A DNA stretch of 64,000 bases, taken from assembly GCF_051903065.1 (NCBI RefSeq), contig NZ_CP178438.1; one strand, written 5' to 3'. Position 1 is the first letter of the stretch. The number at the start of each line of letters is the position of its first letter. Source of the DNA: Escherichia coli. GTDB lineage: Bacteria; Pseudomonadota; Gammaproteobacteria; Enterobacterales; Enterobacteriaceae. Both the position numbers and the translations under genes were made by a program. The notes below the pieces were generated by a model. It ran no database searches. It saw only the letters and a list, made by a program, of their open reading frames with translations, and was not told the DNA's origin. Positions 55,252-59,744 of this stretch are shown here, piece by piece.

Positions 55252-55346
55252 GGAAGATCGTCGTCTCCGGTGAGGCGGCTGGACTTCAAATCCAGTTGGG
55301 GCCGCCAGCGGTCCCGGGCAGGTTCGACTCCTGTGATCTTCCGCCA
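55252..55346 (+). tRNA. selC: tRNA-Sec (selenocysteine, anticodon UCA)
   Basis: 95-nt sequence ggaagatcgtcgtctccggtgaggcggctggacttcaaatccagttggggccgccagcggtcccgggcaggttcgactcctgtgatcttccgcca, with long variable arm, UCA anticodon and encoded CCA. Confidence 0.95.
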
Positions 55347-55645: not shown

Positions 55646-56437
55646 ATGGCATTAACCGATATCAAAGTGAAAACCGCAAAACCCAAAGACAAACCCTATA
55701 AGCTTGCTGATGGCGGCGGTATGTATCTACTGATTAACACTAATGGTTCTAAATACTGGCGCATGAAGTACCGCTTTGCTGGTAAAGAAAAGATGCTTTC
55801 TATTGGCGTATACCCCGATGTAACGCTAGCCGATGCTCGCGAGAAACGCAGTGAAGCCAGGAAACTCCTCGCTGCTGGAGGCGATCCAGGGGAGGCAAAA
55901 AAGGAAGAAAAAATCGCGCAGCAAATGAGTCTGCAAAATACGTTCGAGGCTATTGCTCGCGAATGGCACCAGTCAAAAGCCGATCGGTGGTCATTACGCT
56001 ATCGTGATGAAATCATTGATACCTTTGAAAAAGACATTTTTCCCTACATTGGCAAGCGCCCTATTGCCGAAATCAAACCAATGGAGTTACTGGAAGCACT
56101 GCGTAAAATGGAAAAACGTGGAGCTCTGGAGAAAATGCGCAAGGTCCGCCAGCGCTGTGGTGAGGTGTTCCGCTATGCAATTGTTACTGGCCGGGCAGAC
56201 TATAACCCAGCCCCCGATCTTGCCAGTGCTTTAGCTACACCGAAAAAAGTACATTTTCCCTTTCTTACTGCTAATGAACTTCCCCACTTCCTCAACGATC
56301 TGGCGGGTTATACCGGAAGTATAATCACTAAGACAGCTACTCAGATCATTATGTTAACCGGCGTACGAACACAAGAACTGCGTTTTGCACGCTGGGAAGA
56401 TATCGATTTTGAGACAAAATTGGGCTTTGTTGAATAA
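55646..56437 (+). pseudogene. Truncated P4-type tyrosine integrase (N-terminal arm-binding and core-binding part only)
   Basis: 263-aa ORF MALTDIKVKTAKPKDKPYKLADGGGMYLLINTNGSKYWRMKYRFAGKEKMLSIGVYPDV... (typical P4-family integrase N-terminus), 300 bp downstream of selC. Native sequence ends at 56422; the frame runs 4 codons into the IS left inverted repeat and stops. The catalytic R..HxxR..Y domain is absent. Confidence 0.85.
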
Positions 56438-57479
56438 ATCGAACTTTTGCTGAGTTGAAGGATCAGATCACGTATCTTCCCGACAACGCAGACCGTTCCG
56501 TGGCAAAGCAAAAGTTCAAAATCACCAACTGGCCCACCTACAATAAAGCCCTCATCAACCGTGGCTCCATAACTTTCTGGCTGGATGATGAAGCTATTCA
56601 GGCCTGGTATGAGTCAGCAACACCTTCTTCACGAGGCAGACCTCAGCGCTATTCTGACCTTGCCATCACGACTGTGCTGGTCATTAAACGCGTATTCAGG
56701 CTGACCCTGCGCGCTGCGCAGGGCTTTATTGATTCCATTTTTTCTCTGATGAACGTTCCGCTACGCTGCCCGGATTACAGCTGTGTCAGCAGGCGGGCAA
56801 AGTCGGTTAATGTCAGTTTCAAAACGCCCACCCGGGGTGAAATCGCACACCTGGTAATTGATTCCACCGGGCTGAAGGTCTTCGGTGAAGGCGAGTGGAA
56901 AGTCAAAAAGCATGGCCAGGAACGCCGCCGTATCTGGCGTAAGCTGCATCTCGCCGTTGACAGTAAAACACATGAAATCATCTGCGCTGACCTGTCGCTG
57001 AACAACGTTACGGACTCAGAGGCCTTCCCCGGGTTAATCCGGCAAACCCACCGGAAAATCAGGTCAGCCGCCGCCGATGGCGCTTACGATACCCGGCTAT
57101 GTCACGATGAACTGCGGCGTAAGAAAATCAGCGCGCTTATCCCTCCCCGAAAAGGTGCGGGTTACTGGCCCGGTGAATATGCAGACCGTAACCGTGCAGT
57201 GGCTAATCAGCGAATGACCGGGAGTAATGCGCGGTGGAAATGGACAACAGATTACAACCGTCGCTCGATAGCGGAAACGGCGATGTACCGGGTAAAACAG
57301 CTGTTCGGGGGTTCACTGACACTGCGTGACTACGATGGTCAGGTTGCAGAGGCTATGGCCCTGGTACGAGCGCTGAACAAAATGACGAAAGCAGGTATGC
57401 CTGAAAGCGTGCGTATTGCCTGAAAACACAACCCGCTACGGGGGAGACTTACCCGAAATCTGATTTATTCAACAAAGCC
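56423..57479 (+). mobile_element. IS903-group (IS5-family) insertion sequence, 1057 bp, intact 18-bp terminal inverted repeats, no target-site duplication
   Basis: Left end ggctttgttgaataaatc (56423-56440) and right end gatttattcaacaaagcc (57462-57479) are exact inverted repeats. The left-end sequence matches the IS903 end of Tn903 as I recall it. Flanking 9-mers acaaaattg and ggatttcat are not identical. Confidence 0.88.
56455..57423 (+). CDS. IS903-family DDE transposase
   Basis: 322-aa ORF (TTG start in the track) ...YLPDNADRSVAKQKFKITNWPTYNKALINRGSITFWLDD...; it fills the IS between the inverted repeats. The true start may be downstream. Confidence 0.85.
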   Translation: MKDQITYLPDNADRSVAKQKFKITNWPTYNKALINRGSITFWLDDEAIQAWYESATPSSRGRPQRYSDLAITTVLVIKRVFRLTLRAAQGFIDSIFSLMNVPLRCPDYSCVSRRAKSVNVSFKTPTRGEIAHLVIDSTGLKVFGEGEWKVKKHGQERRRIWRKLHLAVDSKTHEIICADLSLNNVTDSEAFPGLIRQTHRKIRSAAADGAYDTRLCHDELRRKKISALIPPRKGAGYWPGEYADRNRAVANQRMTGSNARWKWTTDYNRRSIAETAMYRVKQLFGGSLTLRDYDGQVAEAMALVRALNKMTKAGMPESVRIA

Positions 57480-57770
57480 GGATTTCATCTGAACAACGGC
57501 CCACAGGCCGATCGACTTGCCGACCTGGAAAGAATGCTGCATCTGTTCAGCGGCAAACCGATCCCCGACAACCGGGAAAACATCACTATTCATCTGAATG
57601 AGCACATCCGGTCTGTTCAGGGTAAAGAGTGCTATGAAGATGAAATGTTCAGCATCAGATACTTTAAGAAGGGCTCCGCGCACATCACGTTCAGGAAACC
57701 AGAACTGGTTGATCGGCTAAATGATATTATAGCCAGACACTATCCGGAAATGTTACCTTCACAATAGAGT
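57480..57770 (+). pseudogene. Orphan 3' gene fragment (C-terminal 96 codons of an unidentified protein) abutting the IS right end
   Basis: The frame is open from the first base after the IS right repeat (GFHLNNGPQADRLADLERMLHLFSGKPIPDNRENITIHLNEHIRSVQGKECYEDEMFSIRYFKKGSAHITFRKPELVDRLNDIIARHYPEMLPSQ) with no start or ribosome-binding context. Family not recognised. Confidence 0.5.
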
Positions 57771-57899: not shown

Positions 57900-57921
57900 T
57901 TCGACTCCTGTGATCTCCGCC
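57900..57921 (+). repeat. Imperfect direct repeat of the selC 3' end (attR-like island boundary)
   Basis: tcgactcctgtgatctccgcca matches selC 55324-55346 (tcgactcctgtgatcttccgcca) apart from a single T deletion; the following ~50 nt also resemble the sequence just downstream of selC. Confidence 0.8.
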
Positions 57922-58559
57922 AAAATGCCTCTCCTGACGTTCTCCAACCCCTTGTAATACTGTCAATCCAGATATTTTCTACTGCTCAATATTCAATCGG
58001 CTTCAGGAATACCTGGTCTAAGGTTTTGTGATGGACGATGAGCGGCTGAAGAATCCGCCTGTCGGTTCTTCTGTCCTCGAACGCATCCGCGATATTCACG
58101 CCAGTATGCGCCGTGTTTATTTGCAGGTGATTTGCCCCCCTGCTGACTCTCAGCCAACTGTATCGCCATTAAGGTGAAGATGTTGTTTTACTCGCCCCAG
58201 AACACCCTTTTTTATACGACTATTCTATTTCTTTAACCGCTGGCGAAAAAAAACTGACTATAAACTTCACCAATAATCAGACTGCCATCAAGATTAATTT
58301 GTTCATTTAATATATCAAATCAACTTGTTTTATTTTTACTATCAAAAATAGCTCATTGCCTTACTATAATTAATATATAAATTCGGTAATTAATTCTTAA
58401 CATGCTTTTACTAATAATCTCAATTGCTGGCCCTATAATATTGCGCTAGCATTGCTTTCTGGTTGTATCAGCGATACTCAAAAATTCTTAATACAATACT
58501 CATTCGACTGGTACTTATTTGTAACTCAGTTATATTTTTTCGCCCGGTGATTCAGAAGA

Positions 58560-59744
58560 ATGCAAAAAACGGCTACCACTCCATCAAAAATACTTGATCT
58601 CACTGCCGCGGCATTTTTACTTGTCGCCTTTCTGACGGGTATTGCGGGCGCTCTTCAGACTCCTACCCTAAGTATATTCCTCGCAGATGAACTGAAAGCC
58701 CGTCCTATAATGGTAGGTTTTTTCTTCACCGGTAGCGCTATTATGGGAATTCTGGTCAGTCAATTTCTGGCAAGGCACTCCGATAAACAAGGCGACCGTA
58801 AATTACTGATTCTGCTATGTTGCTTATTTGGAGTGCTGGCCTGCACGCTTTTTGCGTGGAATCGCAACTACTTCATTCTCCTCTCAACGGGCGTACTTCT
58901 GAGTAGTTTTGCTTCCACCGCAAACCCGCAAATGTTCGCCCTCGCCCGTGAACACGCCGACAGAACAGGCCGTGAGACGGTCATGTTCAGTACATTTTTA
59001 CGTGCTCAGATCTCGCTTGCCTGGGTTATCGGGCCACCGCTCGCTTATGAACTGGCAATGGGATTTAGTTTTAAAGTGATGTATCTCACCGCTGCCATCG
59101 CATTTGTTGTTTGCGGACTGATAGTCTGGTTGTTTTTGCCATCAATACAAAGAAATATTCCTGTCGTTACCCAACCCGTAGAAATTTTACCCTCCACCCA
59201 CAGGAAGCGGGATACGCGGCTACTTTTTGTGGTCTGTTCAATGATGTGGGCGGCGAATAATCTCTACATGATAAATATGCCGCTATTTATTATTGATGAA
59301 CTGCATCTAACCGATAAACTGGCTGGAGAAATGATTGGTATCGCTGCCGGTCTGGAAATTCCGATGATGTTAATCGCAGGCTATTACATGAAACGTATTG
59401 GCAAGCGACTATTAATGCTCATTGCTATCGTGAGTGGAATGTGTTTTTACGCCAGCGTACTCATGGCGACGACTCCGGCGGTTGAGCTGGAATTGCAAAT
59501 TCTTAATGCCATCTTCCTTGGTATTCTCTGTGGTATCGGCATGCTTTATTTTCAGGACTTGATGCCTGAAAAAATAGGCTCTGCGACAACGTTATATGCA
59601 AATACTTCACGCGTCGGCTGGATTATCGCCGGCTCTGTTGACGGAATTATGGTTGAAATCTGGAGCTACCATGCGTTGTTCTGGCTGGCGATAGGGATGT
59701 TGGGTATTGCGATGATTTGCCTGCTGTTTATTAAAGATATTTAG
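58560..59744 (+). CDS. setC: Sugar efflux transporter (MFS, SET family)
   Basis: 394-aa ORF MQKTATTPSKILDLTAAAFLLVAFLTGIAGALQTPTLSIFLADELKARP...; clear similarity to SetA/SetB as I recall them. Confidence 0.88.
   Translation: MQKTATTPSKILDLTAAAFLLVAFLTGIAGALQTPTLSIFLADELKARPIMVGFFFTGSAIMGILVSQFLARHSDKQGDRKLLILLCCLFGVLACTLFAWNRNYFILLSTGVLLSSFASTANPQMFALAREHADRTGRETVMFSTFLRAQISLAWVIGPPLAYELAMGFSFKVMYLTAAIAFVVCGLIVWLFLPSIQRNIPVVTQPVEILPSTHRKRDTRLLFVVCSMMWAANNLYMINMPLFIIDELHLTDKLAGEMIGIAAGLEIPMMLIAGYYMKRIGKRLLMLIAIVSGMCFYASVLMATTPAVELELQILNAIFLGILCGIGMLYFQDLMPEKIGSATTLYANTSRVGWIIAGSVDGIMVEIWSYHALFWLAIGMLGIAMICLLFIKDI

Follow-up and report, generated by a model that had tools for sequence, protein, structure and literature searches.

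The window considered here, the whole stretch of 64,000 nucleotides (64 kb) of Escherichia coli DNA that was analysed, carries at the tRNA gene selC, a classic hot spot for tRNA-linked islands, the remnant of a CP4/P4-type genomic island; the rest is ordinary E. coli backbone (lldD, the waa cluster, spoT, recG, yicJ). The island is integrated in selC and bounded by attL and attR: the locus lies at the 3' end of the tRNA gene, and direct repeats of that end delimit it on both sides. Its features are listed below, together with the neighbouring landmarks; 33-6 is a strain in which the locus is undeleted, and 23CRST027 is one of two complete genomes that share the arrangement found in the window.

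55252-55346, plus strand: tRNA-SeC gene (selC), into which the island is integrated (ARAGORN, anticodon TCA; annotated as tRNA-Sec in 23CRST027)
55323-55346, plus strand: attL, the repeat of the selC 3' end, which matches the far-end repeat
55646-56422, plus strand: truncated P4-type tyrosine integrase gene, codons 1-259 of 394
56414-56422, no strand: left 9-bp flank of the insertion sequence, ACAAAATTG; the next bases in intact 33-6 are TGGGAGATCC
56423-56440, plus strand: left terminal inverted repeat, 18 bp, GGCTTTGTTGAATAAATC
56455-57423, plus strand: IS903B transposase ORF, 322 aa from a TTG codon, intact
57462-57479, minus strand: right terminal inverted repeat, 18 bp, GGCTTTGTTGAATAAATC
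57480-57488, no strand: right 9-bp flank, GGATTTCAT; directly preceded in intact 33-6 by GGGACAGATGG
57480-57767, plus strand: in-frame tail of a DUF4942 gene (nt 559-846, comprising codons 187-281 and the stop codon)
57900-57922, plus strand: attR, a direct repeat of the selC 3' end and right boundary of the remnant
58001-58162, plus strand: rhuM pseudogene fragment outside attR, an older remnant (transferred from the 23CRST027 annotation)
58560-59744, plus strand: setC, the first backbone gene on the right, given for context

The boundary repeats comprise a perfect 17-bp direct repeat (55323-55339 with 57900-57916), which can be extended to 23 of 24 nt if one single-base gap is allowed. Between them, both genes that abut the insertion sequence are incomplete. 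The left one had been described as the N-terminus of an integrase and this is indeed the case: its 259 residues are identical to residues 1-259 of the intact 394-aa integrase of strain 33-6, after which the reading frame continues for four codons into the insertion sequence and ends at a stop at 56437. The NCBIfam profile NF007246 is accordingly matched over positions 8-265 of 413, and the annotation of 23CRST027 marks the gene as 'missing C-terminus'. The 135 residues absent from the window include the motifs HGFRH, LAHVD and RGTY (the tyrosine motif), and the Pfam catalytic domain spans residues 206-370 of the intact protein. What lies beside the tRNA gene does not qualify as a functional tyrosine recombinase, the HxxR and Tyr motifs being in the lost part. 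The right flank, previously read as the 3' end of a different reading frame, proved to be the in-frame tail of a DUF4942 gene. The junction falls at 0-based position 558 of the 846-nt gene of 33-6, so that the last 95 of its 281 codons are kept; the Pfam DUF4942 domain covers residues 87-276 of the intact protein, and the fragment is annotated in 23CRST027 as 'missing N-terminus'.

The element that separates the two fragments spans 56423-57479 on the plus strand, is complete and measures exactly 1057 bp; the interval 56414-57488 given in the earlier note corresponds to it plus 9 bp on each side. The same note had taken it to be structurally intact, with perfect 18-bp terminal inverted repeats, and both statements were borne out. 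The arms differ at base 19 (G vs A), and a repeat finder extends them past 18 bp into the flanks at a complementarity of only 73%, which is not meaningful. The 18-mer GGCTTTGTTGAATAAATC occurs just twice in the 64-kb window, at the two ends of the element; tolerating two mismatches adds no further site, and the expected count in shuffled sequence is then still 0. The transposase scores 357 bits against NCBIfam NF033579 (IS5-family transposase; cut-off 140) and, past the start codon, is identical to WP_000654812.1, an IS903B family transposase encoded by another copy. Comparison of the full 1057 bp, which the earlier note had proposed as a means of naming the element, yielded 100% identity to many E. 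coli copies labelled 'IS5-like element IS903B' in RefSeq. Therefore, the element is IS903B (IS5 family, IS903 group), in agreement with each structural feature that was tested. The window holds a single copy. Of the 5,426 complete E. coli genomes searched, 1,993 have a match to IS903B, and the median number of places in these is 2.

The 9-bp flanks ACAAAATTG and GGATTTCAT are mismatched at 8 of 9 positions, which confirms the observation that no 9-bp target-site duplication surrounds the element. The significance of this absence depends on whether IS903B does generate such duplications. A duplication of 9 bp is tabulated for IS903 (PMC2577343), and the rule held in three IS903B copies from other strains that had been retrieved for unrelated reasons and that differ from the window copy by 2-4 mismatches each: perfect duplications were present in strain 729_141114_1_15 (TAGTGTAAC), in strain XDL, where the element lies within ghrA (GCCTGGAAG), and in strain F2_407_2_2, where it lies between setC and yicL (GATATTTAG). 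Given these near-identical copies and the published value, the missing duplication in the window is a real departure from simple insertion, and it belongs to the insertion event, not to the element itself.

A crucial piece of information came from relatives in which the locus has not been interrupted. The left flank is 100% identical in many strains in which the integrase is intact, and the right flank is 99.5-100% identical in many strains in which the DUF4942 gene is intact, yet the only relatives with both flanks 100% identical are 33-6 and 58-3. In these two strains the breakpoints are 9,642 bp apart, and the flanks are collinear with those of the window and in native orientation. The separation of the flanks, whose measurement had been suggested beforehand, thus places them in two different genes. 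The interval in 33-6 contains the following:

33-6, 9,642-bp interval as a whole: the integrase 3' end, then 14 other annotated genes or gene fragments, then the first 558 nt of the DUF4942 gene
33-6, within the interval: a TPR protein gene, a phosphoethanolamine transferase gene and an outer-membrane protein gene
33-6, within the interval: an hns-like pseudogene, acuR, and PglZ and antirestriction fragments
33-6, within the interval: radC, yeeT and a gene pair for a YeeU-family antitoxin and a CbtA-family toxin
33-6, within the interval: DUF5983 and DUF957 genes

Other strains with these flanks have 11.8-52 kb between them, as judged from match coordinates. The interior of 33-6 is a mosaic that is contiguous only in 33-6 and 58-3, and for this reason the figure of about 9.6 kb for the loss, a minimum-type value, is the best estimate at hand and not a certainty; the ancestral island may have been larger. 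Additional information was provided by ECNB21-M121, the closest backbone relative (about 1 mismatch in 25 kb), in which the integrase 3' end and the TPR gene are kept along with a portion of the phosphoethanolamine transferase gene. This retained part is collinear with 33-6 at 99.9%, which supports the presence of a 33-6-like left part in the ancestor. ECNB21-M121 also carries an IS903B with 0 mismatches to the window copy, which lies in this same island and is oriented alike. Its two junctions differ from those of the window and likewise lack a duplication: one is within the phosphoethanolamine transferase gene, and the other corresponds to window position 58426, past attR and 134 bp upstream of setC.

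The order integrase fragment, IS903B, DUF4942 fragment was found, among the 5,426 complete genomes, only in 23CRST027 and 23CRST031, two human faecal isolates from Ecuador. The window and 23CRST027 differ by one base in a C-run at 57030, and it is this difference that frameshifts the transposase of 23CRST027. The search for further copies of the element, also proposed in the earlier note, showed that each of these two genomes carries IS903B in 20-22 places. An IS903B site common to ECNB21-M121 and the 23CRST strains elsewhere in the chromosome was looked for and not found, so that a shared, IS-expanded ancestor is not demonstrated.

All these observations identify the event as a deletion bounded by an insertion sequence: the interior of the island is gone, and one intact IS903B lies exactly at the joint. 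The anatomy is that of an adjacent deletion: the element at the joint is complete, its flanks line up with the undeleted locus, and there is no duplication. The proposal of the earlier note, namely that an IS-mediated adjacent deletion or a recombination between two copies removed the C-terminal half of the integrase together with island genes, is thus supported by each check that the note had proposed. An inversion was discarded, since neither flank is turned around relative to selC and setC. Relocation of the interior was also discarded: 23CRST027 and 23CRST031 are absent among the top-ranked matches to the 6.6-kb interior, within which a near-identical copy would rank.

Three routes predict the final sequence equally well, namely adjacent deletion, recombination between two copies, and one-step insertion with deletion. 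We lean, with modest confidence, towards an insertion followed by transposase-mediated adjacent deletion, that is, intramolecular replicative transposition. Briefly, IS903B would have entered the island at some position by normal transposition, creating a 9-bp duplication, and the transposase would then have carried out one or two intramolecular replicative events, in each of which one end of the element would become linked to a target close by, with loss of the intervening DNA as a non-replicating circle. The outcome of such a process would be a complete element, flanks in native order and orientation, and no matching 9-bp repeats. Several lines of evidence argue for this route. A single insertion in a target of 11 kb suffices, whereas recombination requires two. 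The identical element of ECNB21-M121, with its different duplication-less joints, points in the same direction, because recombination would need four separate insertions to account for both lineages. The expansion of IS903B in the 23CRST lineage (20-22 places vs a median of 2) also favours the involvement of the transposase. Moreover, a second locus of 23CRST027 and 23CRST031, next to cydA, contains a complete IS903B preceded by a 47-bp IS903B remnant, which begins at the terminal base of a left end and abuts a truncated LysR gene without a duplication. This joint is end-specific and non-homologous, which is a transposase signature, and recombination between two complete copies cannot yield it directly. 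Finally, the route is in keeping with the literature, in which adjacent deletions are common for IS903 and 14 of 14 duplication-less IS150 deletions of the long-term evolution experiment arose by adjacent deletion from an IS150 already in place (PMC11708052).

Some facts count against adjacent deletion. Cut-and-paste is the main mode of IS903 transposition, the replicative pathway being the minor one. About 20 identical IS903B copies represent plentiful substrates for RecA, and the end product is also the exact outcome of a RecA-dependent recombination between two direct copies; the window copy is identical to those of its relatives, so that no mosaic signature can be read from it. The published IS903 target motif marks neither breakpoint as preferred. 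In addition, an intermediate carrying a single IS903B with its duplication at either breakpoint was searched for in the 5,426 complete E. coli genomes, by megablast of both real joints and by blastn with a synthetic joint made of the DUF4942 5' part, GGATTTCAT and the left end of the element, and none was found. At the integrase site, the joint left by a simple insertion would read CAACAAAGCC-ACAAAATTG-TGGGAGATCC (right end of the element, duplication, integrase 3' part), and at the DUF4942 site it would read GACAGATGG-GGATTTCAT-GGCTTTGTTG (DUF4942 5' part, duplication, left end of the element). A database search with the island interior likewise did not find an ancestral IS903B inside it. One possibility is that a single ancestral IS903B lay in the part deleted in both the window and ECNB21-M121 lineages, which extends from the phosphoethanolamine transferase gene to nt 558 of the DUF4942 gene, and that independent two-sided deletions followed in each. 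The joints of ECNB21-M121 could reflect repeated local end-joining from one or several insertions. Two successive deletions at the window locus, or a wholly different route, are likewise possible.

Next in plausibility, and in our view a serious contender that is nevertheless rather unlikely, is the notion that the integrase gene and the DUF4942 gene had each independently acquired an IS903B, with both copies facing the same way, and that RecA-dependent recombination between them deleted the interior and one of the copies. Of the two original duplications, only the left half of the first and the right half of the second would survive, as observed at the joints; the 20-22 identical copies of the lineage offer abundant homologous substrates, and recombination between insertion sequences is a frequent cause of missing duplications (PMC11708052). 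It demands, however, two independent insertions in one island of roughly 11 kb, neither of which was found among the 5,426 complete E. coli genomes (a sample that does not exclude them), and two further insertions at two other island sites in ECNB21-M121. The 47-bp end remnant elsewhere in the same genome, in turn, attests to non-homologous, end-specific joining in this lineage.

It seems improbable that IS903B arrived from elsewhere and inserted in one step as the interior was lost, so that the duplication was never made, whether by insertion at a double-strand break or by the attack of the two ends on two separate targets. A precedent exists in a new 62-kb deletion of E. coli C, centred on an element of the IS903 subgroup, devoid of a duplication and arisen within one overnight culture (PMC11708052), and the two-step intermediate was not found here among the 5,426 complete genomes. 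However, the authors of that work allow for two steps in rapid succession, the lack of intermediates in the sampled genomes is weak evidence, and no feature of the sequence demands a one-step event.

Very unlikely is an assembly artefact in which two true IS903B copies surrounding the island interior were collapsed by the assembler. The element is a 20-copy repeat in this lineage, and homopolymer-length differences between assemblies hint at error-prone reads; yet the joint is also present, besides the window, in two separately assembled complete circular chromosomes, and those genomes are not among the top matches to the interior. Finally, a simple insertion between adjacent flanks whose 9-bp duplication later mutated has nothing beyond the intact element in its favour and can be virtually dismissed, since 8 of the 9 positions differ and, in a relative with 100% identical flanks, these lie 9,642 bp apart in different genes.

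A separate observation concerns strain EC596, where, in an island at the serX tRNA gene, an IS903-type element lies at the joint between the 3' flank of ycdT and the tail of a paralogous DUF4942 gene. Compared with the window copy, this element shows 35 differences over 1057 positions (3.3%); its joint falls at nt 559 of the DUF4942 gene vs 558 in the window, that is, 1 bp apart, and it has the same orientation, no duplication and the whole island interior gone. Apart from this joint and that of the window, the collection of 5,426 genomes contained no IS903/DUF4942 joint of this kind. The coincidence looks non-random and suggests a preferred target, two cases being known. No simple insertion at the DUF4942 site was detected in the 5,426 genomes by blastn with the synthetic joint, and a metagenome scan for the joint between the right end of the element and DUF4942, with a 1-bp offset allowed, gave 0 matches. 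The published IS903 motif does not account for the coincidence. For WTTYA-N9-TRAAW, background sequence matches on average at 3.7 of 10 positions; the breakpoints reach 3-6 and the three genuine insertion sites just 4-5 of 10, which makes the motif uninformative here. We regard as doubtful the stronger proposition that nt 558/559 of DUF4942 genes, located at the ends of CP4-type islands, is an unrecognised strong target of IS903-type elements from which these islands are repeatedly stripped, or that the joints of the window and ECNB21-M121 are one-step, duplication-less events. If the hot spot were true, the EC596 joint would be a natural target to study how IS903 chooses its sites.

IS-bounded deletions have long been known, and the event is one of them, an instance of ordinary and well-understood genome erosion. 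It accounts for two pseudogenes annotated in RefSeq, the integrase and the DUF4942 fragment, and it cost the lineage a cargo that included the phosphoethanolamine transferase gene and the CbtA-family toxin/YeeU-family antitoxin pair. With most of the catalytic domain missing from its integrase, the remnant is no longer able to excise, and the selC island of this lineage is a dead, non-excisable shell. It adds to the documented instances in which insertion sequences erode genomic islands, here in an E. coli clone that is undergoing IS903B expansion. Variants of the selC locus bounded by IS1 also exist. Taken together, the window, ECNB21-M121 and the IS1-bounded variants depict the decay of the selC island as recurrent and IS-driven.

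When placed beside known systems, the locus resembles tRNA-linked CP4/P4-type islands of E. coli, which have the integrase at the tRNA end and radC, yeeT, yeeU/cbtA, DUF5983, DUF957 and DUF4942 genes at the far end: it shares with them the selC-adjacent integrase, the tRNA-derived boundary repeats and the terminal DUF4942 gene. Unlike an intact island of this type, only a 2.6-kb shell is left, of which the insertion sequence makes up 1.06 kb. The element itself conforms to IS903/IS903B in its length of 1057 bp, its perfect 18-bp inverted repeats and its single DDE transposase ORF, and differs in lacking the 9-bp duplication typical of simple insertions of the element. With the classical adjacent deletions of IS903 (PMC11708052) it has in common the complete element at the joint, the absence of a duplication, the native orientation of the flanks and the one-sided loss of neighbouring DNA, whereas neither joint in the window seems identifiable as the original insertion site. 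Lastly, the Ec-Del-IS of E. coli C (PMC11708052) coincides with the window case in IS subgroup and species, in the position of the element between the deletion ends and in the missing duplication; that element measures 1,051 bp and has 14-bp inverted repeats, in contrast to the 1057 bp and 18 bp of the window IS903B, and its deletion was observed in the laboratory and removed 62 kb of backbone, while the window documents the loss of at least 9.6 kb of island in a natural isolate.

The right edge of the island remnant in the window is a repeat of the selC 3' end (57900-57922), and the fragment of a rhuM pseudogene found outside it seems to be an older remnant. Both features, and the copy of IS903B in the selC island of ECNB21-M121, the closest backbone relative, are as follows (L-numbers denote loci from other E. 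coli strains, with coordinates counted within each locus):

Window 57900-57922 and 55323-55346: selC 3' end repeat, 23/24 nt
Window 58001-58162: rhuM pseudogene fragment
L007 3171-4227: IS903B, ECNB21-M121 (NZ_CP083585)

The ECNB21-M121 element is identical to that of the window and lies in the same island in the same orientation, but its joints differ from the window's: the element is placed between a fragment of the phosphoethanolamine transferase gene and a point 134 bp upstream of setC, the right joint corresponding to window 58426, so that attR and the rhuM fragment fall within the ECNB21-M121 deletion. Comparison of its flanks, CCGTCAATA and GCTGGCCCT, indicates that there is no duplication at this copy.

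The island of strain 33-6, used as the undeleted reference, is itself rearranged: a fragment of PglZ (BREX) adjoins a fragment of an antirestriction gene (L004 6387-6995). In 19SZHZ713Rt and similar strains, the stretch that begins with the phosphoethanolamine transferase gene and reaches pglZ is oppositely oriented relative to the DUF4942 end.

Two complete genomes, 23CRST027 and 23CRST031, have the same junctions as the window. The transposase ORF is intact in the window, which reads CCCC at 57030-57033; 23CRST027 reads CCC, and its transposase is therefore annotated as frameshifted. One of the two assemblies may have miscounted this homopolymer through a sequencing error. A further joint lies elsewhere in these genomes:

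L014 3001-4104: complete IS903B plus preceding 47-bp copy of its left end, between cydA and sucD, 23CRST031 (NZ_AP045800)

The 47-bp copy stands directly before the complete element, the flanks (CTGATAAAT and GTGCTTTGA) show no duplication, the neighbouring LysR gene is truncated, and 23CRST027 has the same cydA-sucD joint. The remnant joint is evidence for end-specific, non-homologous joining in this lineage.

Elements of this type were also found in other strains:

L011 2501-3557: IS903B adjoining a CP4-type island end, strain 162.2
L012 3005-4061: IS903B adjoining a CP4-type island end, strain YZ22MPE54
L005 5094-6150: IS903-type element, serX locus, EC596 (NZ_CP156718)

Neither the 162.2 copy (flanks GCGGGTAAC/GATGCGTGG) nor that of YZ22MPE54 (TTCTACCGA/AAAAGGCAT) has a 9-bp duplication. 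In the selC-setC interval of other lineages, namely MB30, C3728, ECCNB20-2 and PT62 (L009), the selC island or setC is truncated, with IS1 at the boundary. Erosion of the selC island is recurrent, and different ISs are involved.

The EC596 element, which also lacks a 9-bp duplication, is independent of the window's IS903B (35 mismatches in 1057 positions), and the entire island to its left is missing. It abuts a paralogous DUF4942 gene at nucleotide 559, in the same orientation as the window's element, whose joint (57480) falls at nucleotide 558, only 1 bp away. The DUF4942 joint site is thus a possible hot spot for IS903.
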